Below, in pieces: positions 10,639 to 54,313 of a stretch of DNA of 64,000 nucleotides. Position 1 is the first letter of the stretch. Each line of letters opens with the position of its first letter. Under the pieces are notes generated by a model, which worked only from the letters and a program-made list of their open reading frames with translations, was not told the origin of the DNA and ran no database searches. The stretch spans positions 10,655 through 74,654 of the forward strand of contig JAZOWN010000037.1 of the NCBI GenBank assembly GCA_045659245.1. The letters are read 5' to 3'. Both the position numbers and the translations under genes were made by a program. Origin of the DNA: Eubacteriales bacterium. Its GTDB lineage: Bacteria > Bacillota > Clostridia > Oscillospirales > CAG-272.

Positions 10639-10647
10639 GGAGCTGTT

Positions 10648-11373: not shown

Positions 11374-11374
11374 A

Positions 11375-35918: not shown

Positions 35919-35950
35919 CTATTATAACTGATTAAGCGATGCTATTAAGT
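35905..35950. other. Prophage attachment junction (att)
   Basis: ATPase homology breaks immediately upstream of the PEGL codons and abuts the integrase stop; exact crossover is unknown. Confidence 0.7.
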
Positions 35951-37301
35951 CACCTGTCTCGGTGACTACTACTTTCTTAATGACTCGTGACCAAAATGCT
36001 TTTTTAGCTTCGGCATCAAGCGTTATATACGTTTCACGAAATCCCTTGAGGAAGCTTGTATCTATTGGCTTTTGTTCTTCTACTCTTTCGTCGAGCTCTG
36101 CTTCTTTAAGAAGCGAAGAGAGGGCCGTATAGTCTCTCTCGTACATCTCGCGAGTGAGCAGATCGTTTAAGTATAGATCCTTAAGCTTCTCTATTTTTGC
36201 AATGATTTTCGGCACGTCGATGCTTTTTTTAATACCGCGCTTTTGTTTGGACTTTAACGAGATATTATATTCCTCAACGATAGTCTTTAAATTCTCACAG
36301 ATCCATTCCTCTAAAGTATCCTGATTTATTTGCCTTGACATATCGCACGTTCTCATTGTGTGTGCCGGACAGCGGTAATATATGTATGTATGTTTTTCAC
36401 CGTTTGGTTTGGAATTAGTGCAAGCATACGTTGTCATTCTTCTTCCGCAGCACCCACAGAAAACTAAGCCTGTGAAAAGATATACTCTGTCTGATCGAGT
36501 CCCATCATATCGAGCGGACCGAACGTCGATTATCTGGTTTGCGAGGTCAAACACATTTTTGTCTATAATTTTCGGGCACCAATCCTTAATACCGTAAGCT
36601 TCTCCAATATACCACGTGTTTGAAAGCATACGCTTCATGGACTTAACGTCTATATTTCGTTTATGCTTTTCAAGGATATACCGGGACGTAGCTTTCATAG
36701 ATCTACAATCTATATACTTATCAAACATGCTCCGAACTATCTCTGCATCAGACTCGTTTATTACCACGCGCTTGTTTTCGATTCTGTAACCCAACGTAGT
36801 GCTGCCGGAAATAACTCGCCCTTCTTTGACCATGTTCTGAAATACAAATTTAATTCTCTCCGAGGTTCGGTCGGATTCGTCCTGGGCGATTGCCAGCTTG
36901 ATGTTAAGGGCAAGCCTGCCGTTCGCTGTCGTTGTATCGTAATCCTCCTCGGTGGCTATCCACTGTACTCTGTATTTGTCAAGGATAGCTTGTACCTCAT
37001 AGTAATCAGCAATGTTTCTGAACCATCTATCGAGCTTGATAAACAGCACCACGTCTATTTTCTTTGCTTTTACGTCCTCAAGCATTCTCATGAATGCCGC
37101 TCGGCGGGTATAGCGCTTACGCGCGGAGATACCCTCGTCAACGTATATATCTACTATGCTTAAGCCGTTCTCAGTGGCGTACTGTATTAGCCGCTCCTTT
37201 TGCGCGTCCAAAGAAACGCCGTGCATGGCTTGTTCCTCGGTAGATACGCGGGCGTACAGCGCGGCCCGTTTTATACCGTTATCAATTCGTTTGGTTTGCA
37301 T
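35922..37301 (-). CDS. Large serine recombinase (integrase)
   Basis: YARVSTEEQ, DEGISA, KLDRWFR, ESDRTSERI motifs and a zinc ribbon (CGCCG...YYRC). Confidence 0.95.
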   Translation of the reverse strand: MQTKRIDNGIKRAALYARVSTEEQAMHGVSLDAQKERLIQYATENGLSIVDIYVDEGISARKRYTRRAAFMRMLEDVKAKKIDVVLFIKLDRWFRNIADYYEVQAILDKYRVQWIATEEDYDTTTANGRLALNIKLAIAQDESDRTSERIKFVFQNMVKEGRVISGSTTLGYRIENKRVVINESDAEIVRSMFDKYIDCRSMKATSRYILEKHKRNIDVKSMKRMLSNTWYIGEAYGIKDWCPKIIDKNVFDLANQIIDVRSARYDGTRSDRVYLFTGLVFCGCCGRRMTTYACTNSKPNGEKHTYIYYRCPAHTMRTCDMSRQINQDTLEEWICENLKTIVEEYNISLKSKQKRGIKKSIDVPKIIAKIEKLKDLYLNDLLTREMYERDYTALSSLLKEAELDERVEEQKPIDTSFLKGFRETYITLDAEAKKAFWSRVIKKVVVTETGDLIASLNQL

Positions 37302-38815
37302 TTATCCTCCGTAACGTTTGTCTGCCCGAGCAAGTGGGTGCTTACTCGGAGTTGCTCCGTGTCTTTAAATTCATACTCATCAGAAGATGTGTCTAATTTG
37401 CTATCTTCAAAAAGCTGTTTTGTTTCAGGATATTTAATATGTATATAATTAAGCTTATACTCTAATACACTTTTTTGTTCGTGTATTTGATTTGTTTCTC
37501 TACGTAGCTCGTCTATTCTGCGGGCTTCTTTTATGGCGGGTCTTGCCTTTTTTCGTAAGTACTTAGATGCTTGTACATAATAAAGCGTTTTTAAGTCGGA
37601 CACTGTTCCGGCAAGATATGGATACGCGGCGCACTTTTCTTCTATCATTTTTTCTACATAGGTGTTTAGATTGTCTAAAGATTGCTGGTGGGCTTTTTCT
37701 TTGGCACAAATCTTGCTTAGTGAGTCCTTTTCATTTTCAATTCTTTTATCTAACTCTACTTTGTCCCGGTAAAGTTCAGAAAGTCTTTCAACGGTGTCTT
37801 TAGTATAGCTATTGCATTCTGCTTCATTGAACTGTAGTAATCCTAACGAATAGGCGAGAAACAGAATATGCTTACAAGGTAATTTATCCGGACCTTTTTG
37901 AAATATGAAATCTTCACAGCTACAGTGTGTAAGCGATGTATTCTCATATTTTTTTGCTCCTGAATATATATCTGCTGAAAACCGGAGATTGCTTATTAAT
38001 AGTTTTGATTCAAAAGCATAGTTGAGACGGTTTGATGTTATGCTGTCAAAAAATTTGTTGATTTTATATTCATTGCGGAATGTCTGACGGATTGCGCGAG
38101 ACATTCTGCTTGAATTTTTGTGAAACAATATAAGCTGAGAAAGATGTGTTTGGCCGTCTGCAATTCGTTGGTTGAGTGCTGATAATTCATCGCTACGCTC
38201 TTTGATCACTTCTGTAAAGGTTCTGTTTTTTTTATGAAAATGGGGATCATCAAACGCGGGGAGTTCATTCGCTAACTCCGGATGCTTGATAACGCAAAAC
38301 TCTAATGCTTTTTGATATTCTGCGACTGATGACTTTGATTTGTTTAAATCAAATTTAAGTTGATTGATTTTTGAGTCGTATTCGTCGCGTACATACTCTT
38401 TTGACGTAATAGGAGGTCTTTCTCTTAGCTTTTTGCGGAGTTCTTCGTTTTCTGCTTGTAAATTATCTATCTCGCACATTAGCTTTCTTTCTTCTTCGTG
38501 ACTCTTAGAAAGCTTATTTTGCAAATCTTTTATCTGTTCAAGTAAATATTTCTTTCTCATATATGGATTATAGCTGTCCTTTATCTGAATTATAGTAACA
38601 ATGATTTCCCAAATGGCAAGTGGGAATAGCAACCAAAGAACGGTAATAGTCGCAGATGCGATTCCGATTGTAATAGTTATTGCAACCAAGATACCGCACA
38701 CAATATGATTTGTCACAAATTCATGTTCTCTACGGAAATCAGAAAATAAAAATATAGAAAAGAAAATGGCAAATGCAAAGCAAGCAAGGATAAAAGCAAA
38801 TCCAACTATAATCAT
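37271..38815 (-). CDS. Membrane-anchored coiled-coil protein with SWIM-type zinc finger
   Basis: Three N-terminal hydrophobic segments; CSCEDF...PCKH motif; AT-rich; lies between repressor and integrase. Confidence 0.7.
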   Translation of the reverse strand: MIIVGFAFILACFAFAIFFSIFLFSDFRREHEFVTNHIVCGILVAITITIGIASATITVLWLLFPLAIWEIIVTIIQIKDSYNPYMRKKYLLEQIKDLQNKLSKSHEEERKLMCEIDNLQAENEELRKKLRERPPITSKEYVRDEYDSKINQLKFDLNKSKSSVAEYQKALEFCVIKHPELANELPAFDDPHFHKKNRTFTEVIKERSDELSALNQRIADGQTHLSQLILFHKNSSRMSRAIRQTFRNEYKINKFFDSITSNRLNYAFESKLLISNLRFSADIYSGAKKYENTSLTHCSCEDFIFQKGPDKLPCKHILFLAYSLGLLQFNEAECNSYTKDTVERLSELYRDKVELDKRIENEKDSLSKICAKEKAHQQSLDNLNTYVEKMIEEKCAAYPYLAGTVSDLKTLYYVQASKYLRKKARPAIKEARRIDELRRETNQIHEQKSVLEYKLNYIHIKYPETKQLFEDSKLDTSSDEYEFKDTEQLRVSTHLLGQTNVTEDKCKPNELITV

Positions 38816-38898: not shown

Positions 38899-39372
38899 TT
38901 ACATAAGATCTTCGTCGGTTTCGGGGGCATTCTGTATCTTTGCAAACGCCTCTTTATCCATCTTTATATACGCATCACGCGTTTTGTTGTTGGAATGAGC
39001 TGCGGTATACAAATATACTTGTCCGTCTTCTTCTACTCCGAGAAGATGACATACGGCAGGTTGAAATTCAGGGTGGGAACGGTATGCATCAATAACAGAT
39101 AGCTCATGCTCCGTAAGTTTTGGAGCGTTGACGGTATTATTTTCATTTACTGTTATTCCAAAAAAATATCCTATTGGAACATTACAAGCAGAGGCAATTT
39201 TTATTAATGTGGATACTTTTACCTGTGTTGGCTTACCGGTGCGAAAATCAAAGCCTTTTTCTATGTTATCAATCGTAGTATGGCTAACATCGCATTTAAT
39301 TGCAAATTCTCTCAAAGACAGATTTGCCCTCAATTGTTTAACTTTTAAACCAATATACTCTTCTAAATTCAT
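38899..39372 (-). CDS. CI-like phage repressor (XRE HTH)
   Basis: LSLREFAIKCDVSHTTIDNIEKG HTH; divergent from cro. Confidence 0.85.
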   Translation of the reverse strand: MNLEEYIGLKVKQLRANLSLREFAIKCDVSHTTIDNIEKGFDFRTGKPTQVKVSTLIKIASACNVPIGYFFGITVNENNTVNAPKLTEHELSVIDAYRSHPEFQPAVCHLLGVEEDGQVYLYTAAHSNNKTRDAYIKMDKEAFAKIQNAPETDEDLM

Positions 39373-39404
39373 AAACTTCTCCAAATGTAGTGTTGACTAA
39401 ACAT

Positions 39405-39433
39405 ATTGTATCATATAAACAACTAACAGTCAA
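39405..39433 (-). promoter_or_regulatory. Leftward sigma-A promoter for the repressor
   Basis: TTGACT-17 nt-TACAAT with extended TG on the minus strand. Confidence 0.7.
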
Positions 39434-39465
39434 GAATTTTGTTAAAATTCACGTGTTGTTTATGC

Positions 39466-39494
39466 TTGACAGGCTCAATGCGATGTGATATAAT
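39466..39494 (+). promoter_or_regulatory. Rightward sigma-A promoter for cro and the early operon
   Basis: Perfect TTGACA-17 nt-TATAAT with extended TG. Confidence 0.85.
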
Positions 39495-39528
39495 TTAGTA
39501 AACCAAAAACAACGAAGGAGGATAGGTG

Positions 39529-39729
39529 ATGAAAAACTGTATTAAAATTCTTAGAGCTGAGAGAAGTCTGACGCAGGAGGAATTAGCCAAAAAGGCTGGA
39601 ATTTCTCGTCCAACTCTTGCTATGATAGAAAATGAGAGAGCTGAACCGGACGGAAAAACAATAGCATCTTTGGTTAAAGCGTTAAATGTCCCTGCAACGC
39701 AAATTTTTTTTGATTTAGATGTAGTTTAA
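39529..39729 (+). CDS. Cro-like XRE HTH protein
   Basis: LTQEELAKKAGISRPTLAMIEN; AAGGAGG RBS. Confidence 0.88.
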   Translation: MKNCIKILRAERSLTQEELAKKAGISRPTLAMIENERAEPDGKTIASLVKALNVPATQIFFDLDVV

Positions 39730-39760
39730 AAACAACAAAGAAAGAGAGGAAAAAAGAAAA

Positions 39761-40288
39761 ATGAAGAAAATCAAAAAAATCAACGAGGAAGTATTCAAAA
39801 TAGGCAAGTATAAGTTCATCAAATTTACAGGTGACGACGGAAACATTATAGGCGTTCTTAAGGATAGTCTTTGCGACATGCGTTTTGGCGATAACAACGA
39901 TTTTTCCAAGAGTGATATCCTCAAGAAACTTAACGAGGAATTTTTGCCCGAAATTGAGAGCATTGTGGGCGCTGAAAATGTTCTTGAATTTGAAACAGAT
40001 TTGATATCACTCGACGGCTCAAAGAAACACGGCACAATGAAATCCAAAGTTTCTCTGCCTACATTCGATTTTTACAGAGCCAACAGAGCAATATTTGCAA
40101 AGTACAAGCTTCAAGATTGGTGGTGGCTGGTTACTCCTTATTCTACAAGCGAGTATGTAAATGATTGGTGGGTATGTTGCGTCTCGCCGCGCGGTGATAT
40201 CTGCTACTACAGCTGCAGCAATGACTACTTCGGCGTTCGCCCGTTTTTACACTTTTCATCTTCTATCTTTGACTCTTTGGAGATGTAA
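39761..40288 (+). CDS. DGR target protein 1 (DUF6273-like / CLec-like C-terminus)
   Basis: WWWLVTP...CCVSPRG...GVRP; contains VR1. Confidence 0.88.
   Translation: MKKIKKINEEVFKIGKYKFIKFTGDDGNIIGVLKDSLCDMRFGDNNDFSKSDILKKLNEEFLPEIESIVGAENVLEFETDLISLDGSKKHGTMKSKVSLPTFDFYRANRAIFAKYKLQDWWWLVTPYSTSEYVNDWWVCCVSPRGDICYYSCSNDYFGVRPFLHFSSSIFDSLEM
40177..40247 (+). repeat. DGR variable repeat VR1
   Basis: 71-nt ungapped match to TR 44644-44714 with 12 mismatches, all opposite TR adenines. Confidence 0.95.
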
Positions 40289-40364
40289 TGACGAGTGCCG
40301 CGTTGAAGAAGAAAACATTGAGCTAAAATAAAAATCAACAAATAACACATAAAAGGAGGAAAAA

Positions 40365-40559
40365 ATGATTAACGGAGAACTTATCAAAATACTTATGAGG
40401 TCAAAGGGGATAACGGCACGACAGCTTGCCGCTAAGGTGGGAGTCAGCGAACCCATGATGTCGAATATCCTGGGAGGCTTGAGAGAGCCGAACGTACACA
40501 CGCTGGTCCGCATCGCCAAAGAACTCGGCTACACCGTGGACGAGCTTATCGCAAAGTGA
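40365..40559 (+). CDS. XRE HTH protein
   Basis: ITARQLAAKVGVSEPMMSNILGG...TVDEL. Confidence 0.85.
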   Translation: MINGELIKILMRSKGITARQLAAKVGVSEPMMSNILGGLREPNVHTLVRIAKELGYTVDELIAK

Positions 40560-40560
40560 G

Positions 40561-41136
40561 GTGAGAGGTATGAGATTAACGTGCTTATGTATTATCACGC
40601 TCGCAGTAAATATAATACTGCTGTCGTTGCTTTATGTAATTATATACGTAAGACTGCTATCAATCAGCAAAAAACTAAATTCAGATCCGCCTGAATTCTT
40701 CGTGCCAATAAGCCGCAAGGATTTTCTCATTCGCCTTAAGGGACAGGAGAATGATTTCCCCTCGACGGATGAGGATCTAATTCGTACCTTGGCGTGGCTT
40801 GCCGCAGACAACCGTGACGGAGGTGATAGTTTTACCTCCGAGGCGTGTGACAAGGCTGCTGCCAGATTACGTGAGCTGACAGATCCTTGCGGAGGATGGA
40901 TCTCTACCGAGTGGGAGATGCCTCCGGAGGATGACACTGTTCTTGCGGTAGTGAACGGTAAGCTTGGTAACATTAAGTTTATAAATTCTATTGAGACGGC
41001 ACAGTGGTGCGATGACGAAGGCTGGTTGCTCTGTTTTAACGTTGAAGCCGGAAGCAATGATCATATAGAAATTAAATGGTGGCGACCTCTGCCCGAGGCA
41101 CCGGAGAAAATCAATGCTGATAAGAATGATAAATAA
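40561..41136 (+). CDS. Phage protein with N-terminal TM segment and DUF551-like C-terminus
   Basis: WISTEWEMP...WWRPLPEAP pattern. Confidence 0.65.
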   Translation: MRGMRLTCLCIITLAVNIILLSLLYVIIYVRLLSISKKLNSDPPEFFVPISRKDFLIRLKGQENDFPSTDEDLIRTLAWLAADNRDGGDSFTSEACDKAAARLRELTDPCGGWISTEWEMPPEDDTVLAVVNGKLGNIKFINSIETAQWCDDEGWLLCFNVEAGSNDHIEIKWWRPLPEAPEKINADKNDK

Positions 41137-41209
41137 TCAGGTATTTGGACAAGCTCACGGATACATATTATTTAATACGTTCAATTTTGTACGAAAGGGG
41201 CTTGATTAA

Positions 41210-41383
41210 ATGAACAAGGGAAAAGTAATATTTACGAATGAGGTAAACGTTCGCTACATATTTGAGGTAATGTGTGATCTGCTGACAAGGCAAAGCGGCG
41301 GAGAACTCATATATGAAATAGCGGAATTTAGCAAAAAGGAAGTAAAAAATGAAAAAAACGAAGCAACTGAAAAATCAATGTGA
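41210..41383 (+). CDS. Small hypothetical phage protein
   Basis: 57-aa ORF (MNKGKVIFTNEV...) with AAGGGG RBS. Confidence 0.5.
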   Translation: MNKGKVIFTNEVNVRYIFEVMCDLLTRQSGGELIYEIAEFSKKEVKNEKNEATEKSM

Positions 41384-41663
41384 AAATATAGTCACTGATC
41401 TTCAAGAATCAGGCATTTCTTCTTCTGATGCCGAGCGTGCGGCGCCGGTACTTATAGATAAGGGCTGGCGCAGAGTTTTAAATGGCACGTGGATAAAAGA
41501 CGAGACCTACAAGGGTACAAATAAAGTTGTTTACCGTTGTTCCGTGTGCGGGCATTGGCAGACACAAAAGAAGTGGAATACGAACGATGGACGGTTTCAT
41601 ATGAACTATTGCCCGTTTTGTGGTAGCACTATGAAAACCGCCTCTGAGCGCAAGGAAAAATAA
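41349..41663 (+). CDS. Phage zinc-ribbon protein
   Basis: GTWI...CSVCG...YCPFCG. Confidence 0.7.
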   Translation: MKKTKQLKNQCENIVTDLQESGISSSDAERAAPVLIDKGWRRVLNGTWIKDETYKGTNKVVYRCSVCGHWQTQKKWNTNDGRFHMNYCPFCGSTMKTASERKEK

Positions 41664-41682
41664 AAAAAAGAGGGACATTAAA

Positions 41683-41829
41683 ATGATAAAACTGCTTATC
41701 CGAATACTTTTGGGCCTATTAGTCCTCGCTTGGCTTTTCGCTGCGGTACATAATCTTTGGGATATAGGAAAAAAAGAAGGAATAGTTAAAGGAAATTACG
41801 AAGATACGGAGGAAGAAGAAAATGAATAA
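41683..41829 (+). CDS. Small membrane peptide
   Basis: 48-aa ORF MIKLLIRILLGLLVLAWLFAAV... with RBS; overlaps the parB start. Confidence 0.5.
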   Translation: MIKLLIRILLGLLVLAWLFAAVHNLWDIGKKEGIVKGNYEDTEEEENE

Positions 41830-43372
41830 TGCAAATGCTCAAAAAGAGCTGGTTTACATAAGCGTGGACAAGCTTTTGCCGCACCCCAACAATCCAAGAA
41901 AGGAGCTTGGAGACCTTACGGAGCTATCCGAGAGTATTAAGGCGAAGGGAGTCATGCAGAACCTTACCGTTGTTCCCGCAGAGGGCGGATGCTTTACTAT
42001 AATCATCGGACACCGCCGCTGCGCCGCTGCGATACTTGCGGGAGTGGACAAGCTGCCCTGCGTAGTAGTAGAGATGTCAGAGAAGGAGCAGCTTTCTACT
42101 ATGCTCCTGGAGAATATTCAACGCTCCGACCTAACCTTATATGAGCAGGCAAAAGGCTTTCAGCTGATGATGGAGCTGGGGGAGAGTATATCGGGGTTGA
42201 CCGAAAAGACCGGCTTTTCCGAAACTACTATTCGCCGCCGTCTCAAGATGGCAGAGCTTGACGGTAAAAGACTTAAGAAGCTTTCAGAAGAACGTCAGCT
42301 CTCCATTGGGGATTTTGACAAGCTCGCCAGTATAGAGGACGTTAAGAAGCGTAATGAGCTTCTTGAAGTGATGGGAACTAATAACTTTGAATATCGCCTT
42401 AAGGTGGCTCTTGCAGAACAGGCGAGGGCTAAGGTAAAGCCTTTGCTCATGAAGATACTCGCTGAAATTGGTGCCAAAGAGATGAAAAACTCATCTGACC
42501 GTTGGAACGGAAAGTATGAATGTATAGAGACGCTACATCTTTTGAAGCTTACTCCTGAGAAAAAGGTAAAGATACCCAAAAAATACAGTGGCAAGAAGCT
42601 GCTTTACTACGAGATCGCGCATAACAGTACGTGTGAAATATGGGGAGAGACCGAAAAGGAGAAAAAGAAGAAGCGCCCTCAAGCTGAGATAGACAGAGAT
42701 AAATATATAGCGGATACAAGAGCAGAGCTTGAGGCGAGCACACGTCTGGCGTATATTCTTAGATACAATTTCGTTACCTCTCTTAATCTTACCAAAGCAA
42801 ACGCCTCTGCGGTGCTTGAAGGCGCTATGCTGGCGCTCATGGCGAGGCAGACGGGAGCTTCCAGACCTCCGTTAGGGAATAATTTCTATTCCAATCACTT
42901 AGATATACCGGCTACGGATTTTGAAGGTGAAGCTAACCGCCTTGACGTTATACGCAAAGGGTACGATAGGTGCGTGAATGAGAAAATCGGCGCGCCGCAG
43001 ATCATGATTTTATACGGCGCATTTGCTGACGACGAAAAGAATAGCTTTTACAGCGATTACTCCGGAATGTTTCCGCGCCACAAGAGAAATCAGATGCTGG
43101 AATACCTCTATGAGTGGCTTGTTTCTATGGGCTATGAGATGTCTGACGATGAGAAAATGCTGCTTGACGGCACGCATCATTTGTTCATAGATAAGGATGC
43201 GAAAAAAATGAGTAACTATTTTTATAAAATAACGGAGAAGGCAAGCGGAGACGTATTCTACGTTGAGACGGACGCGGATCACGAGCCAGCGCAGCTGCTA
43301 TCTGTTCTCGGCTTTGACGACGCATACGTGGCGCGGCGAACCTCAAGAGAAGAAATTGAGAGGGAGTTGTGA
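41822..43372 (+). CDS. ParB/RepB/Spo0J-family protein
   Basis: PHPNNPR, ELSESIKAKGVMQNL, GHRR, ENIQRSDL motifs and HTH. Confidence 0.88.
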   Translation: MNNANAQKELVYISVDKLLPHPNNPRKELGDLTELSESIKAKGVMQNLTVVPAEGGCFTIIIGHRRCAAAILAGVDKLPCVVVEMSEKEQLSTMLLENIQRSDLTLYEQAKGFQLMMELGESISGLTEKTGFSETTIRRRLKMAELDGKRLKKLSEERQLSIGDFDKLASIEDVKKRNELLEVMGTNNFEYRLKVALAEQARAKVKPLLMKILAEIGAKEMKNSSDRWNGKYECIETLHLLKLTPEKKVKIPKKYSGKKLLYYEIAHNSTCEIWGETEKEKKKKRPQAEIDRDKYIADTRAELEASTRLAYILRYNFVTSLNLTKANASAVLEGAMLALMARQTGASRPPLGNNFYSNHLDIPATDFEGEANRLDVIRKGYDRCVNEKIGAPQIMILYGAFADDEKNSFYSDYSGMFPRHKRNQMLEYLYEWLVSMGYEMSDDEKMLLDGTHHLFIDKDAKKMSNYFYKITEKASGDVFYVETDADHEPAQLLSVLGFDDAYVARRTSREEIEREL

Positions 43373-43373
43373 T

Positions 43374-43628
43374 ATGTTTAAGGGAAAAAAGCAAGAAAAA
43401 ATAATAACGCTTGGTCAAAGTATTCGCGCTATCAGAAAGAAACGGGGACTTACACAGCAACAGCTGGCAGAAAAAACGGGCTTGCAGCAATCCTTGATAG
43501 CTCGTTGGGAAAGTGATTCTCATACTCCGACTACGGCACTCCTCGTATGTGTTGCAGATGCGCTTGAGGTTAGCCTGGATGAGCTGGTAGGACGGAAGAT
43601 ATTATCAAAAAAATTTTCGGAGGAATAA
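43374..43628 (+). CDS. XRE HTH protein
   Basis: RKKRGLTQQQLAEKTGLQQSLIARWE...SLDELVG. Confidence 0.88.
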   Translation: MFKGKKQEKIITLGQSIRAIRKKRGLTQQQLAEKTGLQQSLIARWESDSHTPTTALLVCVADALEVSLDELVGRKILSKKFSEE

Positions 43629-43631
43629 AAT

Positions 43632-44246
43632 ATGAATGACAATTACTTATGCATAGGTGGGCTGAGGCTCCCACTTACAGAAGAACAGATTACCCTAATA
43701 AGAAGCAGCTTGCCGCAGATAAAGCTTGCGGATGTGAGGGTGGGAGAAGCCTTTAAAATAGGTGAATACGAGTTTATAGTTCTTGAGCACGAGGAGGGCT
43801 TTACAAAGGTGCTGCTTAAGGACATACTTTGTAAGTCCGCTTTCAGTGAAAAAGACTGTGATTTCAAGAACAGTAAAGTGCTCAGGATTTTGCAGGATTT
43901 TGAAAACAAAATATCTGATATTGTAGGAGCGGAGAACATACTCGCTCATACTATTGATCTTACATCAAATGATGGTCTTAAGGACTACGGTCACACCGTT
44001 GGAAAGGTTTCTTTGCTCTCCTGCGATATGGTGCGAAAGTACGTTGATATCCTGGATAAATACAAAGTGGAGTCGTATTGGTGGCTTGTGACGCCATGGA
44101 GTACGCCTGCACACGGATATAATGAATACGTTTGTTGCGTCTCGCCGCGCGGTTTTATCAACTACGGCGACTACAACATTGACGACGGCGGCGTTCGCCC
44201 GTTTTTTCACTTTTCATCTTCTATCTTTGTCTCTTTGGAAACGTAA
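43632..44246 (+). CDS. DGR target protein 2 (paralogue of target 1)
   Basis: YWWLVTP...CCVSPRG...GVRP; contains VR2; its TAA overlaps the avd ATG. Confidence 0.9.
   Translation: MNDNYLCIGGLRLPLTEEQITLIRSSLPQIKLADVRVGEAFKIGEYEFIVLEHEEGFTKVLLKDILCKSAFSEKDCDFKNSKVLRILQDFENKISDIVGAENILAHTIDLTSNDGLKDYGHTVGKVSLLSCDMVRKYVDILDKYKVESYWWLVTPWSTPAHGYNEYVCCVSPRGFINYGDYNIDDGGVRPFFHFSSSIFVSLET
44135..44205 (+). repeat. DGR variable repeat VR2
   Basis: 71-nt ungapped match to TR with 11 mismatches, all opposite TR adenines. Confidence 0.95.
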
Positions 44247-44614
44247 TGGCGGATAATGATATGAAAGTGATCGTCAAGGCAAAAGAATTGGCGATACACT
44301 CATTTAAGCTTACCTCTAACAACAATAGATATCCAAAAAAATATAGGCATTCACTGGCTGATAGAATCCAATTGAAAGCGCTCGATATATATGATACGTT
44401 ACTTGAAGCGAATAGGATCAACAATGCTGCTTTCCCCGCCATGCGTAGAGAAACTATTTCAAGAGCAGTATTGTATTGTGATCAGATGTTGTTTTACATA
44501 GAACTTTCTATGGGTCTTACTGATCAGAGCATGGAGTCGATACAGTATTGGAGCAAAATGGTTACAGATGTTAAATATCTATCGCTTGCATGGAGAAAAA
44601 AAGAAACCAAATAA
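44246..44614 (+). CDS. avd: DGR accessory variability determinant (Avd-like four-helix bundle)
   Basis: 122 aa, basic, YPKKYRHSLADRI...EAN...W pattern; located between target and TR. Confidence 0.85.
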   Translation: MADNDMKVIVKAKELAIHSFKLTSNNNRYPKKYRHSLADRIQLKALDIYDTLLEANRINNAAFPAMRRETISRAVLYCDQMLFYIELSMGLTDQSMESIQYWSKMVTDVKYLSLAWRKKETK

Positions 44615-44620
44615 AAAATC

Positions 44621-44781
44621 GGGTCATGCGTTGTATTTTTTCTTTGCGTCTCGCCGCGCGGTAATATCAACAACAACAACTACAACAATGACAACAACGG
44701 CGTTCGCCCGTATTGGTGGAATGTCAGACAGAGTAGGCATAAGCCGAAATCAGCACCCCACATCAAAAGAACGCATGACCC
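44621..44781 (+). ncRNA. Putative DGR template RNA (TR plus flanks)
   Basis: Bounded by a 12-bp perfect inverted repeat GGGTCATGCGTT / AACGCATGACCC. Confidence 0.65.
44644..44714 (+). repeat. DGR template repeat (TR)
   Basis: TTGCGTCTCGCCGCGCGGT-AATATCAACAACAACAACTACAACAATGACAACAAC-GGCGTTCGCCCGTATT; AAC-rich and intergenic between avd and RT. Confidence 0.95.
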
Positions 44782-44818
44782 TTCTCTGAAAGAGATAAAC
44801 AAAAGGAGGCTATGCAGC

Positions 44819-45856
44819 ATGACCGACTTTGAAAAGGTGATAGCTTTTGAAAATATGTACCGTGCGTACCGCAAAGCAAAATGCGGAAAGGGATATAAGA
44901 AAAGCGCGGCACGTTTTAATATAATGGCTCTTGAGGGTATAAACAGGCTTGTTGAGCAGTTGGAATCCAAAGAGTACAGGGTATCGGAGTATAACGAGTT
45001 TAAGGTATACGAGCCCAAAGAGCGCATAATACAAACTGCATCGTTCAAGGACAAGGTGGTGCAGCATAGCCTATGTGATAACGTGATACTTCCTCGCTTG
45101 AGCGAAGTGTTTATATACGACAACTGCGCGGGGCAGAAAGGTAAGGGGACGCTTTTCGGACTTCAACGTCTCGAAGAACATATGACGACCTTCTGGCAAA
45201 AACATAGACTTGAAGGATATATCCTTAAATGTGATATATCAAAATTTTTCTACAATATTTCTCATGAACAATTAAAGGACATAGTTGAATATCATTTTTC
45301 GTATGATACAGATATCTGTTGGCTTTGCAGTATTTTCATTGATAGCACGGCCGGAAAAGGGATCCCACTTGGTAATCAGATAAATCAAGGCTTTGCGCTA
45401 ATGTATCTTGACGGTATGGACAAGCTCATTACAGGAGAATTGGGAATCGAGTATTACGGCAGATACATGGACGACTTTTATTTAATGCACCCCGACAAAG
45501 ATTATTTGAAATATTGTTTGGAGGTAATCACCGCATATTTAGATACCCTTGAGCTTACTCTGAACGGTAAAACACAAATCTTTCCAATCAAGAATGGTGT
45601 GAGCTATCTTGGTTTCCACTCATACATAACTGAAAATGGTAAGGTGATTCGCAAGCTGGACAATAAGAAAAAGAGGGCTGCACAGCGCAAATACCGCCGT
45701 ATGGCGAAGCTGGTTTCAGAAGGAAAATTATCATCCGAGAAGCTCCGAGATTCTTTTTATGCTTGGAAAAATCATGCATCGCATGGAAATTGCAAGAAAA
45801 TTTCCGAAAGAATGGAGAGTATGATAAAAGAAATCTTGAATCGAGGTAAAATATGA
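44819..45856 (+). CDS. DGR reverse transcriptase
   Basis: 345 aa; EPKER, FKDKVVQ, KGKGT, LKCDISKFF, GIPLGNQINQ, RYMDD and YLGF motifs; no maturase or endonuclease domain. Confidence 0.95.
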   Translation: MTDFEKVIAFENMYRAYRKAKCGKGYKKSAARFNIMALEGINRLVEQLESKEYRVSEYNEFKVYEPKERIIQTASFKDKVVQHSLCDNVILPRLSEVFIYDNCAGQKGKGTLFGLQRLEEHMTTFWQKHRLEGYILKCDISKFFYNISHEQLKDIVEYHFSYDTDICWLCSIFIDSTAGKGIPLGNQINQGFALMYLDGMDKLITGELGIEYYGRYMDDFYLMHPDKDYLKYCLEVITAYLDTLELTLNGKTQIFPIKNGVSYLGFHSYITENGKVIRKLDNKKKRAAQRKYRRMAKLVSEGKLSSEKLRDSFYAWKNHASHGNCKKISERMESMIKEILNRGKI

Positions 45857-45930
45857 CAAATATTGAATTAAAGCCGAGTCCGTTTTGCGGCGGCGAAGCA
45901 GAAGCGAAGATGAAAGGCGGTGCGGAATGA
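45853..45930 (+). pseudogene. Truncated Lar-like (restriction alleviation) remnant
   Basis: MTNIELKPSPFCGGEAEAKMKGGAE* resembles the LKPCPFCGGEA start with the first Cys lost. Confidence 0.5.
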
Positions 45931-46148
45931 GAGTATCACAGTTAATTCACGCTATGGATAAGAACGATATTATAGTCATTGATGATTATGACGCACCTAT
46001 CGACAAAATGACAATATACCAAGGAACTGTAAGAGGGATAAAGCGAGATAACCCTGTTAACCAAATGCACGTTTCAAGTATATGTGCTAAAGACGATACG
46101 ATTTTAGTACTTGCTGAAAATCCGAGGAAGAAAGGAGAGCAGGAATGA
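45927..46148 (+). CDS. Hypothetical phage protein
   Basis: ORF MRVSQLIHAMDK... coupled to its neighbours by ATGA overlaps. Confidence 0.6.
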   Translation: MRVSQLIHAMDKNDIIVIDDYDAPIDKMTIYQGTVRGIKRDNPVNQMHVSSICAKDDTILVLAENPRKKGEQE

Positions 46149-46289: not shown

Positions 46290-46490
46290 ATGAAATTTAA
46301 GCACGACGGTTATTTTGGCGATGGAAGTGCCTGTATATACGGCTACGACGATAATGGTGTTAAGGTAGCAATTTTCCGAGGATACGTCAATTTACGGCGA
46401 GACACTGTTACGCTGTACCCCAAGAGGCTGCTTGTGCCGACGAGAGAGGATGTCGGCAAGCAGACAATTTCCATCAGAATGCTAAAATAA
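46290..46490 (+). CDS. Hypothetical phage protein
   Basis: 66-aa ORF with RBS, followed by a GGGCGGA/TCCGCCC hairpin. Confidence 0.55.
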   Translation: MKFKHDGYFGDGSACIYGYDDNGVKVAIFRGYVNLRRDTVTLYPKRLLVPTREDVGKQTISIRMLK

Positions 46491-46646
46491 AAGGGCGGAC
46501 AAGCTCCGCCCTCCAAAACGAAAATTTAATGGGCGAGAGGGCGCCCTTTAGTTCCTCGTACTCATATCTTAAAATAACGACGATATAGGGTACGGGAACT
46601 CATGAAAATACGAGAAAGTAAAAAAATCACTCGGGAGGAAAATCAG

Positions 46647-47030
46647 ATGTCAGGAGTCGTAAGTCAAAGTCAAGTCAAGTCCTTCTCGGAAATTTTATCC
46701 GAGGTAAGAGAAAGAGTAGAAATAGAGTGCTTTGAAAAAAGAGAGAGAGCAGTAGCGGAGGAGCTTTGTTTGATAATTGCGGAAGTGGAGTGGCTCCCCA
46801 GTGAAGCAGTGGCCCGAATCGGTGGCAACGATTTGCCGGCAGCATACGTTTCTGAAATATATCGCCGCATAGACAATGGCCGTCTCGCTGCCGTGATTTT
46901 TAAATACTCGGAGGCGAGATACCCCATAAAGCACAAAAAGACTTATTTACGAACCGCGCTCTATAACGAGGTATTTGAGCATGAGAGTGGCGAGCTAAAT
47001 GATTTTAACACAAGCTTCGGAGGATTTTGA
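46647..47030 (+). CDS. Hypothetical protein resembling a replication-initiator C-terminal domain (DUF6017-like)
   Basis: IKHKKTYLRTALYN motif; GGAGG RBS. Confidence 0.5.
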   Translation: MSGVVSQSQVKSFSEILSEVRERVEIECFEKRERAVAEELCLIIAEVEWLPSEAVARIGGNDLPAAYVSEIYRRIDNGRLAAVIFKYSEARYPIKHKKTYLRTALYNEVFEHESGELNDFNTSFGGF

Positions 47031-47914
47031 TGGTACGCGAGAAAAAAATAAAATCAGGTCGTCTTCTTGAGGTAGACTACTATCCGATTTGGAATGACGG
47101 AAGAAGGTTGCCGACCAGAGCTCCGAAGACGAAGCCCACGAGCGAGGAGCAGAAGAAGTACAACAAGAAGCGCGCTATATTGCACTTTACGCGAATGATA
47201 AACGCCAATTACGACACGGGAGATATCTTTCTTCACGTGACATACTCACCCGAGAACGCCCCAAACACCATTGAGCAGGTAGAGAAGGATTTTTATAATT
47301 ACATAAGGCGAATTAAAACGCGTCGCGCGCCCGAGCTTAAGAAAGCGAGGGCGCTTTTGGCGTCCTCTCCCGGCGATCACGAGCTCGCAAAGAGGGTAAA
47401 GAAGCTCGCAGAGCCGTTTAAGTACTACGAAGTTATCGAGGAGAATACATACAAGACGGGAAAGCACAAGGGGCGTACCGTCTGGCATTTGCACGTGTTT
47501 ATGACGGGAGGTATTGACAGAGACGTTGTAGAGGATACATGGGAGCTTGGTGCGCGTGTAAACGCCGATCGCTATCAGCCGGAGCGCTTTGGGCCAGAGG
47601 CGGCAGCCAGATATTGCTCCAAAAATCCAAGCGGTAAAAAACGGTTTCGTTGTTCTCGCAATCATAAAAAGCCGATAGAGCCTAAGCCCCGCGACGGAAA
47701 GATCAGTTCGAGGGGCGTTGAGAAGCTTGCGCGTGAGAGAGTTGACGATAAGGCATACTGGGAGCGTAAGTATCGCGGCTACCGTTTTGTGCGTTGTGTA
47801 GCAAAGTATAATAGCTGGAACTCCTCATGGTATCTGTCCGTAATTATGTATAAGTGCGCGACCTCTGCTGATATTCCACCGTGGGGTTCTGTTGACGATG
47901 AGATCTTGTGGTGA
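47030..47914 (+). CDS. HUH (rolling-circle Rep-like) protein
   Basis: FLHVTY (motif 1), WHLHVFM (HUH) and ARYCSK (YxxK). Confidence 0.7.
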   Translation: MVREKKIKSGRLLEVDYYPIWNDGRRLPTRAPKTKPTSEEQKKYNKKRAILHFTRMINANYDTGDIFLHVTYSPENAPNTIEQVEKDFYNYIRRIKTRRAPELKKARALLASSPGDHELAKRVKKLAEPFKYYEVIEENTYKTGKHKGRTVWHLHVFMTGGIDRDVVEDTWELGARVNADRYQPERFGPEAAARYCSKNPSGKKRFRCSRNHKKPIEPKPRDGKISSRGVEKLARERVDDKAYWERKYRGYRFVRCVAKYNSWNSSWYLSVIMYKCATSADIPPWGSVDDEILW

Positions 47915-47993: not shown

Positions 47994-48018
47994 GGGCTGC
48001 AAAAACGCAGCCCTTTTT
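47994..48018 (+). terminator. Intrinsic terminator ending the early/replication region
   Basis: GGGCTGC-AAAAAC-GCAGCCC-TTTTT. Confidence 0.75.
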
Positions 48019-48082: not shown

Positions 48083-48111
48083 TTGACTTTTAAAAAAACA
48101 AGTGATATACT
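48083..48111 (+). promoter_or_regulatory. Putative late-operon promoter
   Basis: TTGACT-17 nt-TATACT with extended TG, upstream of terS. Confidence 0.6.
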
Positions 48112-48196
48112 GAAAAAAACAAGACGGAGTACTGCTATATGTACCATACATGGCAGCGCTCCGTCATTTTTTTATTCCGAGAGGGAGGTGTGCCGT

Positions 48197-48595
48197 GTGG
48201 CAGAGAAAAAATTCAAAACAGCGGCGCAGCTCGCCGGTGCGTGGCGGAGATATAAAAAATATTGCGACGAATATACGGTGACGCGGCGTACTGAGGAGGA
48301 CGGGCGTGTTCGGGTTACGGTTATTTCCAGCCCCCTGACCTACACGATTGACGGATTTTGTGTCTTTGAGGGGATAACCCGCCAAGTGTTTTACCGAAAT
48401 TACTCAAAGGTTGAGCCGTTTTGTCACGTTTTTGAGCGTATGCGCGACGAATGTGAGGTTGATGCCCGCGTTAAATTTGAAACGGGGCGCATTCCTTCAA
48501 AGCTTGCGCCGCTCTGGATGGGGCGATATGGATATTCAAGCAAGCCCTTAGAGGCAGAGCAGGACACGGATATAGTTCGCTTTGAGGACTTATGA
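48197..48595 (+). CDS. Terminase small subunit (putative)
   Basis: Directly upstream of TerL; PLTYTIDGFCVFEGI resembles packaging-protein HTH motifs. Confidence 0.7.
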   Translation: MAEKKFKTAAQLAGAWRRYKKYCDEYTVTRRTEEDGRVRVTVISSPLTYTIDGFCVFEGITRQVFYRNYSKVEPFCHVFERMRDECEVDARVKFETGRIPSKLAPLWMGRYGYSSKPLEAEQDTDIVRFEDL

Positions 48596-50394: not shown

Positions 50395-50594
50395 TGTTTG
50401 TACGAAAAAAAGATTTTATCAAGCTTTGTATGCGAGTTTTAGCTCTTGAGAAGCGCGTCAAGACTTTGACGGCACCCAAGAAGACTGTGTCGGATCTTAC
50501 TCTTGAGCTTCGACGTGCTGAAGAAGAAAGACAAGCCGCAAACGGTACGTTTAACGAATGGCTGAACGGCGAGGAGGAAGAAGAGAATGGCTGA
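50394..50594 (+). CDS. Hypothetical phage protein
   Basis: Small ORF coupled to TerL and portal. Confidence 0.6.
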   Translation: MFVRKKDFIKLCMRVLALEKRVKTLTAPKKTVSDLTLELRRAEEERQAANGTFNEWLNGEEEEENG

Positions 50595-53449: not shown

Positions 53450-54313
53450 ATGTCATTTGCAAATTTTATCCCTACCGTCTGGGCGGAGGGAATACAGCGT
53501 GACCTTGAGCGCTCCTGCGTATTCGTAGAGGACTGTAATCGCGAGTATGAGGGAGACGTCAAGGAAAAGGGCGAGAGCGTCAAGATACTCGGCGTAGGAA
53601 AGCCCACCATAAGAACTCTTGATAAGAGCAACAGAAACGGCAATATCGAGTCGGCAGAGGAGATCGAGGATACTTCCGTTATCATGTATATCAACCAGAT
53701 AAGATATTTCAATTATATGGTTGGTGACATAGACAAGGCGCAGGCTTCCGGAAAGATCATGGACGCTCTTTCCAAGGAGACTACGGAAGGTCTGGCAAAC
53801 GCGCAGGACAAGTACATAGCTGATATGGCGCAGGATAAGACCGTTAAAAAGCTCTACAATGCCGCAAAGCTCGTTACGAGCGGTGCTTCCGATGCAAGCG
53901 CAAAGAACGTGCTTTACGTCCTTGACGAGGCGCTTGAGAGACTTTACGAGAACGACGTCAACTCCAATACGGAAATAGTCGTTACCGTTTCTCCCCGCTT
54001 TTATACGCTTTTTAAGCAGGCGTATATTACCCGCGACACTGATAATTCGGACATTCTCAAAAACGGTCGCGTCGGCCGCTACGGAAACGTTACCGTAAAG
54101 ATGTCTAACAACGTTTCACGCTCCGCTGACAAGTCGGAGGACCACATTATGATCAGAACTAAGAGGGCAATTGCCTTTGCTTGCCCCTTCGTTCATACGG
54201 AGGCGTACCGTCCCGAAAGCAAGTTCGCGGACGCAGTAAAGGGACTTATACTCTTTGACGGTAAGATTGTTCGTCCGAAGGAAATGATCGATATTAACGT
54301 CAAGTATCAGTAA
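53450..54313 (+). CDS. Major capsid protein (P22-coat-like)
   Basis: NFIPTVWA, NREYEGD...GESVKI, FADAVKGL..FDGKIVRP. Confidence 0.88.
   Translation: MSFANFIPTVWAEGIQRDLERSCVFVEDCNREYEGDVKEKGESVKILGVGKPTIRTLDKSNRNGNIESAEEIEDTSVIMYINQIRYFNYMVGDIDKAQASGKIMDALSKETTEGLANAQDKYIADMAQDKTVKKLYNAAKLVTSGASDASAKNVLYVLDEALERLYENDVNSNTEIVVTVSPRFYTLFKQAYITRDTDNSDILKNGRVGRYGNVTVKMSNNVSRSADKSEDHIMIRTKRAIAFACPFVHTEAYRPESKFADAVKGLILFDGKIVRPKEMIDINVKYQ

Follow-up and report, generated by a model that had tools for sequence, protein, structure and literature searches.

The window, that is the whole 64,000-nucleotide stretch of DNA analysed here, very probably contains an active phage DGR in which the final ~20 codons of two paralogues, T1 and T2, are rewritten from the TR by Avd and an RT, with errors specific to adenines. 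With similarly high confidence, the anatomy of the element can be read as a DGR with a two-target A/B cassette, single-domain lectin targets and an early position. As for the site of action, cytoplasm versus virion, we lean slightly towards a free early binder. The parts lie as follows.

39433-39405, divergent: promoter-like site for a CI-like gene
39466-39494, plus strand: early promoter upstream of cro, a sigma-70-type consensus (TTGACA-17-TATAAT with extended TG; 12/12 hexamer match)
39526-39729, plus strand: cro-like XRE-HTH gene heading the early operon (HTH_3, E 1e-16)
39761-40288, plus strand: T1, DGR target 1 (B-type/short, 175 aa), a stand-alone DUF6273/C-type-lectin protein
40177-40247, plus strand: VR1, at the 3' end of T1
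40365-40559, plus strand: second XRE-HTH gene, 3' of T1, a neighbour only (HTH_3, E 7.7e-11)
43374-43628, plus strand: third XRE-HTH gene, directly 5' of T2, a neighbour only (HTH_3, E 1.2e-15)
43632-44246, plus strand: T2, DGR target 2 (A-type/long, 204 aa), a stand-alone DUF6273/C-type-lectin protein with a B-type-like C-terminus
44135-44205, plus strand: VR2, at the 3' end of T2
44246-44614, plus strand: avd, accessory variability determinant (phrog_3206 'Avd protein of DGR', E 8.4e-14)
44644-44714, plus strand: TR, non-coding, between avd and the RT gene, located by repeat comparison with VR1 and VR2
44819-45856, plus strand: DGR RT, 345 aa (RVT_1, E 6.3e-14; YMDD in the translation)

Both ATG 39529 and GTG 39526 are possible starts of the cro-like gene, and because this gene lies directly behind the consensus promoter, T1 comes second in the early operon, as the initial annotation had proposed. 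T2 starts after a 3-nt gap behind the third HTH gene, its stop codon overlaps the start of avd (TAATG), and the RT gene begins 105 nt after the TR.

The TR is 71 nt in length (CVSPRGNINNNNYNNDNNGVRPY) and contains 9 in-frame AAY codons. Over this 71-nt core, 12 of 12 mismatches to VR1 and 11 of 11 to VR2 fall on TR adenines, all 23 when pooled, and 16 of the 22 TR adenines vary in at least one VR. These adenine-only differences, an adjoining RT, avd between target and TR and a VR in the 3' end of a C-type-lectin gene make the element a DGR, and the two ORFs of 175 and 204 aa that had been named as its targets do carry VR1 and VR2. The 18-nt conserved stretch gave three matches in the window against 0.07 expected, namely TR, VR1 and VR2, with no further VR and, in agreement with the initial annotation, none in the tail genes of the window. 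Searching the 1.66-Mb genome with the TR pattern (N at adenines) likewise returned only these three. Avd matched the NCBIfam Avd profile NF033474 below its 80-bit cut-off (E 1.7e-5, 25.1 bits), while the RT, in NCBIfam/PADLOC-type profile searches, gave only generic RT and DRT-type matches below family cut-offs. DGR RTs have a typical motif upstream of YMDD. In BPP-1, a DNA hairpin or cruciform lies just 3' of the VR; folding of 76 nt around each VR end of the window gave z-scores of −0.93 and 0.07, values that do not stand out. Relatives at 90% and 88% identity differ mainly inside the VR2 stretch, indicating that the DGR has been active in this lineage.

The conserved unit among related loci consists of five parts: an A-type target, a B-type target, avd, TR and RT. 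We found avd in 50/80 viral and 70/80 genome loci and RT in 44/80 and 64/80, respectively, with the order A-B-avd in 101/160 loci. Where avd and RT were in order (107 loci), two VRs were present in 96, one in 10 and none in 1, and 2240 of 2346 mismatches across these loci (95.5%) sat at TR adenines. By profile comparison, A and B are plainly paralogous (hhalign probability 100%, E 8.8e-70, 45% identity), with ~30 additional N-terminal residues in the A profile. A second canonical cassette is present in another prophage of the same genome. T1 aligns with the second target of tandem cassettes. The B-type gene of the window has been relocated to its position directly behind cro, and the B-like 3' end of T2 fits recombination between the two VRs. 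Co-folding of the A/B pair gave an ipSAE of 0.38 (runs 0.38, 0.34 and 0.44) against 0.00 for the best control, with partner pLDDT of at least 88 and contact agreement between runs of at least 83%. In the benchmark, 58 of the 80 solved complexes passed the mark, as did 2 of the 110 mismatched pairs; just 7 of those 80, but both mismatches, did so at ipSAE 0.60 or under. The model lends weak support to a predicted A/B pairing of T1 and T2.

There is little doubt that T1 and T2 are soluble single-domain C-type-lectin (DUF6273) proteins of ~20 kDa each. The profile check that had been suggested for them placed T1 above the Pfam DUF6273 (PF19789) gathering cut-off of 23.5 (25.4 bits) and T2 slightly under it (22.2 bits). 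T2 is nevertheless counted in DUF6273 because it matches phrog_9958 (E 6.5e-34; T1 E 2.3e-31), because PF19789 is precomputed on many of its close homologues, and because the A and B profiles align with the hhalign probability given above. Structure prediction, also suggested, returned a C-type-lectin fold for both proteins (AF2 pLDDT 94.6 for T1 and 76.5 for T2). Residues 2-175 of the T1 model form one DUF6273/lectin domain end to end, and beyond this domain T2 has only ~28 N-terminal residues, modelled as two short strands and a helix. The N-terminal beta-prism/beta-sandwich attachment domains of Mtd type are absent from both AF2 models. The DGR-randomised stretch lies just ahead of a conserved GVRPF strand. 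Consistent with the initial annotation, hydropathy alone revealed no signal peptide or TM segment (highest Kyte-Doolittle 19-residue means 0.55 and 0.78). No longer fused forms of the targets were found, a weak negative; no PADLOC defence-system profile assigned a family to T1, T2 or Avd, and a PDB sequence-profile search with the B-type profile (A8) gave nothing meaningful.

The top fold match of both models is 9qa6_A (T1 Z 14.8, rmsd 3.0, 161 aligned; T2 Z 12.0, rmsd 3.1, 165 aligned), and the C-terminal domain of Legionella Lcl (Z 7.7 and 8.4 for the T2 and T1 models), a Bacteroides pilus-tip protein (Z 6.4 and 6.9), Treponema TvpA (Z 5.8 and 7.8) and animal CTLDs also match. All solved structures that resemble the models serve for binding outside the cell or on its surface, and TvpA and the pilus tip are known DGR targets or relatives of such. 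These neighbours speak for a reading in which the A- and B-type targets, alone or paired, attach to tail fibres or capsids, or work once the cell has lysed, as Mtd-like accessories binding host-surface or gut glycans or proteins, the DGR tuning adsorption and host range and the genes lying outside the structural module by chance. In the same direction, T1 and T2 each have a weak match to the Hoc-like head decoration family phrog_10993; tentaclins have their VR in DUF6273, and in the accessible text of PMC10743442 this domain carries the VR in tentaclin/Hoc-like proteins thought to decorate virions; a preprint on Toutatisvirus (10.1101/2024.10.15.618418), in its accessible part, calls both DUF6273 targets likely receptor-binding proteins; and a global survey found viral DGR targets to be mostly tail proteins (PMC8144416). 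The ~30-residue N-terminal beta-hairpin and helix modelled for the A-type might serve for docking as a peptide. In addition, the VR of A-type proteins is flanked by a Cys pair, C169 and C192 (at least 90% conserved in family alignments), that could form a disulfide and would then suit extracellular life; however, the second Cys is missing from T2 of the window and from all B-types. A tail-attachment domain is likewise lacking, the whole of T1 being one lectin domain, and the target genes are consistently found in the early module rather than the tail module, with T1 second in an immediate-early operon. We regard this virion-attached or extracellular reading as a serious, though somewhat doubtful, possibility.

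The genomic setting supports the earlier claims that the targets lie in an early operon and do not resemble tail fibres, each being a stand-alone lectin domain whose early, non-tail position recurs in relatives. In 48 dereplicated viral loci, the flanks hold mostly repressors, antirepressors, integrases, SbcC, RecE/RecT, methylases, helicases, replication initiators and ParB, with terminase and portal downstream of these early-type flanks. Neighbouring genes were called crudely as longest ORFs, and PHROG tallies cover the 25 commonest families only, 150 ORFs on either side. Upstream, these were repressors/regulators (10, 10), SbcC-like (9), recombinase (8), endonuclease (8), antirepressor (7, 5), integrase (6), methylase (5), DnaB (4), RecE (4) and ParB (4); downstream, replication initiator (8), hydrolases (7, 7), methylases (6, 6, 4), RecT (5), helicases (5 each), large terminase (5, 4, 3, 3, 3), DnaD/DnaC loaders (4, 3), DNA polymerase (3) and portal (3, 3). 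Tail families were absent from these top 25 on both sides. The terminases found close to the cassette form at least 4 clusters with no BLAST link between them, so that different virions would need to share one specific docking partner. At least 7 of 43 loci have a large terminase gene no more than 6 kb downstream, which puts their cassette at the early/late boundary, where it could be read with late genes. The position of the cassette may also merely record where a mobile cassette landed.

The initial annotation had gone further and joined each target to the XRE-HTH protein encoded beside it, in a hypervariable module with a regulatory or antirepressor-like role. The three HTH genes are where it placed them, T1 lying between cro and the second and T2 following the third. 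Such a layout of HTH gene and target recalls acr-aca pairs. The synteny survey did not bear the pairing out. HTH_3 was the chosen upstream neighbour in 1/78 viral and 2/73 genome loci, and a further 128 small upstream ORFs from 95 loci yielded one HTH_3 and two HTH_26. XRE-HTH genes stand beside targets in no more than ~5 of 152 related loci. Other DNA-binding folds were also rare (HTH_39 1+3, HTH_17 3, HTH_91 3, Spo0A_C 3+1). The largest upstream neighbour family of any kind was shared by 6/121 loci. In the canonical cassette the targets are followed by avd and not by an HTH gene, and in the other DGR prophage of this genome an exonuclease gene, not an XRE-HTH gene, lies upstream of the targets. 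An HTH-paired, acr-aca-like early module is therefore largely refuted, target-HTH adjacency not being conserved among relatives, and we consider it very improbable that the HTH proteins are partners; judged by this synteny, those of the window are apparently ordinary early-region regulators.

We tentatively favour a proposal in which T1 and T2 would be made alongside the early genes as free binders, possibly acting as an A/B pair, and not as built-in tail parts. They would bind a variable host factor inside the infected cell, leading to counter-defence or host takeover, and a phage whose target variant fits the local host would replicate. The link between genotype and phenotype would be direct, since each incoming genome would express the variant that it encodes. 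Against this proposal stand the extracellular or surface nature of all fold neighbours, the weak Hoc-like match, the A-type Cys pair, the use of DUF6273 in virion-decorating proteins, and possible late-gene readthrough where a terminase is close downstream.

Alternatively, the prophage could express the targets in the lysogen via weak promoters of their own, or spontaneous lysis or vesicles could release them, to the benefit of the host bacterium through, for example, mucus adhesion or IgA/glycan binding. Target-target pairs persist in loci without avd or RT, the top structural match comes from a domain in the IgA protease of a gut bacterium, and a 2026 preprint (10.64898/2026.05.08.723808), in its accessible part, describes a DGR-targeted DUF6273 tentaclin of Mushu-like prophages as expressed and present in the secretome without visible particles. 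This lysogen-side use is nonetheless unlikely: T1 lies behind cro in an operon that the CI-like repressor should silence, the targets have no export signal by hydropathy, promoter-like sites before T2 are no commoner than in shuffles (21 versus 18.8 expected), and the IgA protease keeps its cleavage activity in a construct that lacks the DUF6273 domain, as the accessible text of PMC12402451 has it.

The initial annotation had also put the element forward as a candidate undescribed system, but the protein family is already published as small DUF6273 DGR targets (nd4/nd12 "tgt2", Toutatis and Lelie; PMC10743442, PMC11792537 and preprint 10.1101/2024.10.15.618418), for which the authors of all three, in the portions available, favour a receptor-binding role as a guess. 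Target2 of nd4/nd12 (Baykov et al. 2023, PMC10743442) resembles T1 and T2 in being a stand-alone, single C-type-lectin (DUF6273) domain with the VR at its 3' end, and there too one TR serves two VRs. T2 matched nd4 by tblastn with E 3e-18 (30.8% identity, 87% covered) and nd12 with E 3e-7, and the nd4 tgt2 gene is located among early/replication genes. By contrast, the nd4/nd12 proteins are 234 and 294 aa in length, and their partner target, as described in the accessible text, is a large tentaclin (DUF6273 plus Ig domains), whereas the window has two small paralogues, A and B; an Mtd-like receptor-binding role was proposed there for target2. T2 also matched Toutatis gp24, annotated as a 'DUF6273 domain-containing protein' (E 3e-13), as well as orf58 of Lelie (E 2e-13), at ~31% identity by tblastn; both genes belong to the early region, with methylases or prohibitin on one side and replication initiator plus antiterminator on the other. 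The small target of the Faecalibacterium phages Toutatis, Lelie and CP11 is a core gene at a distance from the TR, as far as the available portions of PMC11792537 and 10.1101/2024.10.15.618418 describe it, and a large Hoc-like target lies beside the RT 17.5 kb away; the window is without a large target.

The closest fold to T1 and T2, the N-terminal DUF6273 domain of the Thomasclavelia ramosa IgA protease (PDB 9qa6), differs in being part of a secreted, cell-wall-anchored multidomain enzyme and, going by the accessible text of PMC12402451, in not being diversified. The Mtd DGR of BPP-1 shares with the window the order target-avd-TR-RT, adenine-specific mutagenesis, a C-terminal C-type-lectin VR and an AAY-filled TR. 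However, Mtd (381 aa) attaches to tail fibres by its N-terminal beta-prism and beta-sandwich and is encoded in the tail module (accessible parts of PMC10743442 and PMC8008677), whereas the window has single-domain proteins, two targets and an early-module position. Mtd did not come up among the top 50 fold matches of the models, which says little either way. The second DGR target of Quimbyvirus (Benler et al. 2021, PMC8008677), likened to T1 and T2 here by description, also has a C-type-lectin domain and lies far from the structural genes, although Quimbyvirus is a Bacteroides phage with its other target in the tail module. In the available part of that paper, this second target is found among methylases and nucleases and was already proposed to be non-structural and associated with phage-host conflict or counter-defence. 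It is a precedent for a non-structural or cytoplasmic C-lectin DGR target, to which STAND-type sensors and cyanobacterial regulators, as far as the sources at hand describe them, add further examples.

The region is part of a temperate prophage that carries a diversity-generating retroelement (DGR), with the following elements in window coordinates.

35922-37301, minus strand: serine recombinase (ORF calling and profile matches)
37271-38815, minus strand: 514-aa ORF with no assigned function, between the recombinase and the repressor
38899-39384, minus strand: CI-like repressor
39466-39494: promoter TTGACA-17-TATAAT with extended TG, a perfect match
39526-39729, plus strand: cro, first gene of the divergent early operon
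39761-40288: target protein T1, 175 aa
40177-40247: variable repeat VR1, in T1
43632-44246: target protein T2, 204 aa
44135-44205: variable repeat VR2, in T2
44246-44614: avd (phrog_3206, E 8.4e-14)
44644-44714: template repeat (TR)
44819-45856: reverse transcriptase, RT (RVT_1, E 6.3e-14)
47027-47914: replication initiator (phrog_3584), reached after about 8.5 kb
48083-50394: small and large terminase
50587-52521: portal
53450-54313: major head protein, followed by large virion proteins

Terminator-like hairpins at 46490-46546 and 47994-48013 enclose a 142-aa ORF and the replication initiator, a two-gene block placed after the DGR and ahead of the small terminase gene, and they likely mark the early/late boundary. 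In the 514-aa ORF the N-terminus is hydrophobic and long stretches resemble coiled coil, and there is a CxC...CxH motif; the ORF returned no PHROG or PADLOC match and a weak SMC-like NCBIfam match (E 3.7e-6), and is a candidate lysogen-expressed gene.

Repeat search and alignment identified a 71-nucleotide repeat in three copies, with the TR between avd and RT and one VR in each target. All 12 differences between TR and VR1 and all 11 between TR and VR2 lie at TR adenines, of which the 71 nucleotides contain 22, with 16 varying in at least one VR. Read in frame, TR is CVSPRGNINNNNYNNDNNGVRPY and has nine AAY codons, which is the classic DGR design. The repeat contains a conserved 18-mer for which 0.07 occurrences were expected and 3 were found. 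A search of all 1.66 Mb of the genome with the TR adenines set to N matched TR, VR1 and VR2 only, and found no tail gene as a DGR target. Given that T2 relatives at 90% and 88% identity differ from it mostly in VR-encoded residues, the element has been active in its lineage. Judged from its sequence, the DGR is genuine and active, and the family of its targets is already known. The folding of DNA hairpins downstream of the VRs was not distinctive. Contigs from four animal-gut DNA runs, compared with 39400-46000, gave short, divergent pieces only (top share of sampled words 0.22). One metagenome contig (run X2) connects 40156 to 44131, with 3974 bases absent and 16 other letters between, and arose either by natural recombination of VR1 with VR2 or as an artefact of assembling across the repeat.

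Both targets match phrog_9958, a family with no assigned function (E 2.3e-31 for T1 and 6.5e-34 for T2). The DUF6273 profile search suggested in the initial annotation placed T1 above the cut-off of 23.5 bits (25.4) and T2 just under it (22.2), and DUF6273 viral clusters were the only returns of an atlas search. AlphaFold2 models reached a mean pLDDT of 94.6 for T1 and 76.5 for T2, the latter with a low VR loop. Foldseek against the PDB gave nothing at E ≤0.001 (best 9qa6, E 0.049), so a VIA wide search of the PDB with the two models was needed to reveal the fold, with the following matches.

9qa6_A, DUF6273 domain of an IgA protease: T1 Z 14.8 over 161 aligned residues; T2 Z 12.0 over 165
Legionella Lcl C-terminal domain: T1 Z 8.4; T2 Z 7.7
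Treponema TvpA: T1 Z 7.8; T2 Z 5.8
Bacteroides pilus-tip protein 4eps: T1 Z 6.9; T2 Z 6.4

Animal C-type lectin domains appear by the dozen lower in both lists, and the models show a lectin fold for the targets. In these models T1 is a single lectin domain throughout, and T2 is the same domain with about 28 additional N-terminal residues. Neither contains a hydrophobic segment (top 19-residue Kyte-Doolittle means of 0.55 and 0.78 for T1 and T2), and their pI values are 5.5 and 5.0, respectively.

The protein search returned 476 homologues, about 200 aa long, whose hypervariable stretch coincides exactly with the VR. A search for longer (fused) homologues found none, which is weak evidence. We examined 160 loci, 80 from the 309 relatives on viral contigs and 80 from the 99 in genomes. 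Record titles of the genome relatives name Eubacteriales, Oscillospiraceae, Oscillibacter, Faecousia, Acutalibacteraceae, Ruminococcus, Congzhengia and a few candidate genera, and all titles but one are Clostridia or groups that we take to fall within Clostridia. The sole other record is a MAG labelled Treponema (L162), with a single-target cassette (target, avd, RT) on a 173-kb contig, which may reflect either faulty binning or presence of the family in a second phylum. We detected avd in 50 of the 80 viral and 70 of the 80 genome loci, and RT in 44 and 64, respectively. The commonest layout is a tandem target pair followed by avd, TR and RT. Among the 107 loci with ordered avd and RT, 96 carry two VRs, 10 carry one and 1 carries none, and 95.5% of 2346 TR/VR mismatches in relatives fall at TR adenines. 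The targets form two distinct paralogue classes, a long A-type (about 202 aa, with an N-terminal extension and the ending ...CILxSNIFVSK) and a short B-type (about 175-184 aa, ending ...SSIFxSxEE), whose profiles match each other by hhalign with a probability of 100% (E 8.8e-70). A PDB search by the B-type sequence profile gave noise only (E ≥0.25). The order A-B-avd was found in 101 of the 160 loci. Tandem A/B pairs also stand without detectable avd or RT on eight viral contigs (L045-L047, L049, L050, L056, L057 and L059), usually with an SbcC-like ATPase of about 640 aa upstream. By sequence comparison, the A/B proteins thus appear to be kept even where the diversifying machinery is absent, and the Toutatisvirus preprint (10.1101/2024.10.15.618418) makes the same observation.

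Against this canonical A-B-avd-TR-RT cassette, the arrangement in the window is derived. T1 is B-type and T2 is A-type; the C-terminus of T2 is nevertheless B-type-like, HFSSSIFVSLET (44190-44251), and the TAATG junction that normally leads into avd is kept in the 3' flank of T1 (40232-40293). Both features fit a rearrangement through the near-identical VRs, and suggest VR1/VR2 recombination with relocation of the B gene behind cro. A second DGR prophage, on another contig (C47, 9927-12728) of the same 1.66-Mb genome, has the canonical cassette.

9927-10547: A-type target
10565-11101: B-type target
11104-11472: avd
11504-11571: TR
to about 12728: RT, 76% identical to the window RT

Its gene order is tyrosine integrase, repressor, primosomal protein, exonuclease, A, B, avd, TR, RT and ParB-like, with the integrase and repressor 5-7 kb upstream of the cassette. 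A large ParB-N-domain protein adjoins the cassette in both prophages, upstream in the window (41822-43372) and downstream in the second prophage (12725-14068); tblastn matched this protein in 5 of 80 genome loci.

The initial annotation had described the lengths and positions of the targets, three HTH_3 genes, the promoter and the absence of other VRs, all of which we reproduced. It had also paired the targets with their neighbouring XRE-HTH genes, naming non-conserved adjacency as an observation that would count against such a module, and this is what the relatives display. When the upstream neighbour was chosen as the longest plus-strand ORF ending within 350 nucleotides upstream, a rule that skipped many small directly upstream ORFs, HTH_3 was the neighbour at 1 viral locus out of 78 (a tally of 3 among 80 members includes two from the window itself) and at 2 of 73 genome loci. 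A second survey compared 128 further plus-strand ORFs of 50-130 aa from 95 loci with Pfam, giving HTH_3 once, HTH_26 twice, HTH_39, HTH_17 and HTH_91 three times each and Spo0A_C once. The other 254 of the 382 extra ORFs (minus strand or other sizes) were screened by a weak local 4-sequence HMM alone, with 2 hits overall at E ≤1. Across 121 loci, the 146 directly adjacent ORFs cluster into families of which none spans more than 6 loci. HTH adjacency is incidental among relatives, the HTH-paired module finds no support, and it is highly improbable that the targets work with the neighbouring XRE-HTH proteins.

The position in the early module is conserved in relatives, as judged from gene content. 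PHROG families were tallied for ORFs within 6 kb in 48 dereplicated viral loci (150 ORFs of at least 160 aa upstream and 150 of at least 180 aa downstream, leaving out 4 of 154 and 2 of 152, all overlapping minus-strand ORFs). Upstream, the commonest were repressors and regulators, SbcC-like endonuclease subunit, recombinase, endonuclease, antirepressors, integrase, methylase, DnaB, RecE, primase and ParB; downstream, they were replication initiator, hydrolases, methylases, RecT, helicases, DnaD and DnaC loaders, DNA polymerase, large terminase and portal. No tail family was among the 25 commonest PHROG families listed on either side in these viral loci. Immediate neighbours in genome loci include SSB, methylases, DUF551, RecT and GIY-YIG. 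Large terminases close to the cassette form four or more clusters that have no BLAST link to one another and match different PHROGs; the cassette therefore travels without being tied to a single virion module. At least 7 of the 43 loci have a terminase within 6 kb, which places the cassette at the early/late border there.

The locus combines retrohoming anatomy, a two-target design and an early position, and carries no export or docking parts. Early position, autonomy from virion modules and the single-domain build lead us to favour, tentatively, A- and B-type targets as free early binders that are probably intracellular, and an early-expressed inhibitor would also have a direct link between genotype and phenotype. 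That the targets are virion or extracellular binders is possible but somewhat doubtful: all fold relatives favour it, the same domain is used in tentaclins (large DUF6273 and Ig-domain DGR targets), the VR of A-types is flanked by a Cys pair, and the base rate among phage DGR targets points the same way. A lysogen-side role seems improbable, and other explanations share the remainder. The conserved A-B tandem suggested a possible A/B pairing. Prediction of a T2-T1 complex from 60-row alignments of each gave it weak support, with an ipSAE of 0.38 (runs of 0.38, 0.34 and 0.44; best control 0.00), partner pLDDT of at least 88 and run agreement of at least 83% of contacts. Of 80 solved complexes, 58 reach the pairing mark used, as do 2 of 110 mismatches, but at 0.60 or lower only 7 of the 80 do so, together with both mismatches. 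We treat the predicted pairing as no more than a lead; a generic dimer mode can also give paralogues a score.

A more specific and rather unlikely proposal is that A- and B-type lectin domains, each with a loop randomised from the same TR, would pair into a composite binding site. Such a two-chain binder would be produced as soon as infection begins. In the cytoplasm it would work as an inhibitor, itself evolvable, of variable host defence or takeover targets. If true, it would be a phage counterpart of adaptive immunity, aimed at bacterial immunity and widespread in Oscillospirales prophages of animal and human guts. Phage DGRs are taught as host-range devices working through tail proteins, and here a whole clade diversifies only two small free lectin-domain proteins encoded among early genes. 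If the targets are not virion parts, phage hypermutation also serves an intracellular or otherwise non-adsorptive task, and the A/B pair would be a compact natural scaffold for evolvable binders; if they are in particles, the finding comes down to an ordinary receptor-binding accessory whose gene is unusually placed.

A tblastn search of deposited phages returned 10 records. Among them are the metagenomic phages nd4 and nd12 and the Faecalibacterium phages Lelie and Toutatis, the latter with gp24 carrying a DUF6273 annotation. Cultured Faecalibacterium phages are among the carriers of the target family. The initial annotation had regarded the system as the best candidate in the window for an undescribed one; small DUF6273 DGR targets are, however, already published. 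The small 'target2' of nd4 and nd12 is a single C-lectin domain diversified alongside a large 'tentaclin' (PMC10743442), Lelie and CP11 each have one large and one small DGR target with no assigned function (PMC11792537), and Toutatisvirus has a small DUF6273 target in its core genome, 17.5 kb from TR (10.1101/2024.10.15.618418); in all three, receptor binding is a proposal only. A global DGR survey describes viral targets as mostly tail proteins (PMC8144416). The idea of a target that is not a tail fibre and may be intracellular has a published precedent; the second DGR target of Quimbyvirus is proposed to be non-structural and conflict-related (PMC8008677). We found no published description of the A/B small-target cassette or its early-module position, though the family may already be present in the tabulated target clusters of PMC8144416 and in the figures supplementing PMC10743442. 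In nd4 and nd12 a small target and a large tentaclin are diversified, whereas the window clade diversifies small A/B paralogues only; what is new here is this architecture variant, with small A/B paralogues as its sole targets and a cassette set within the early module.
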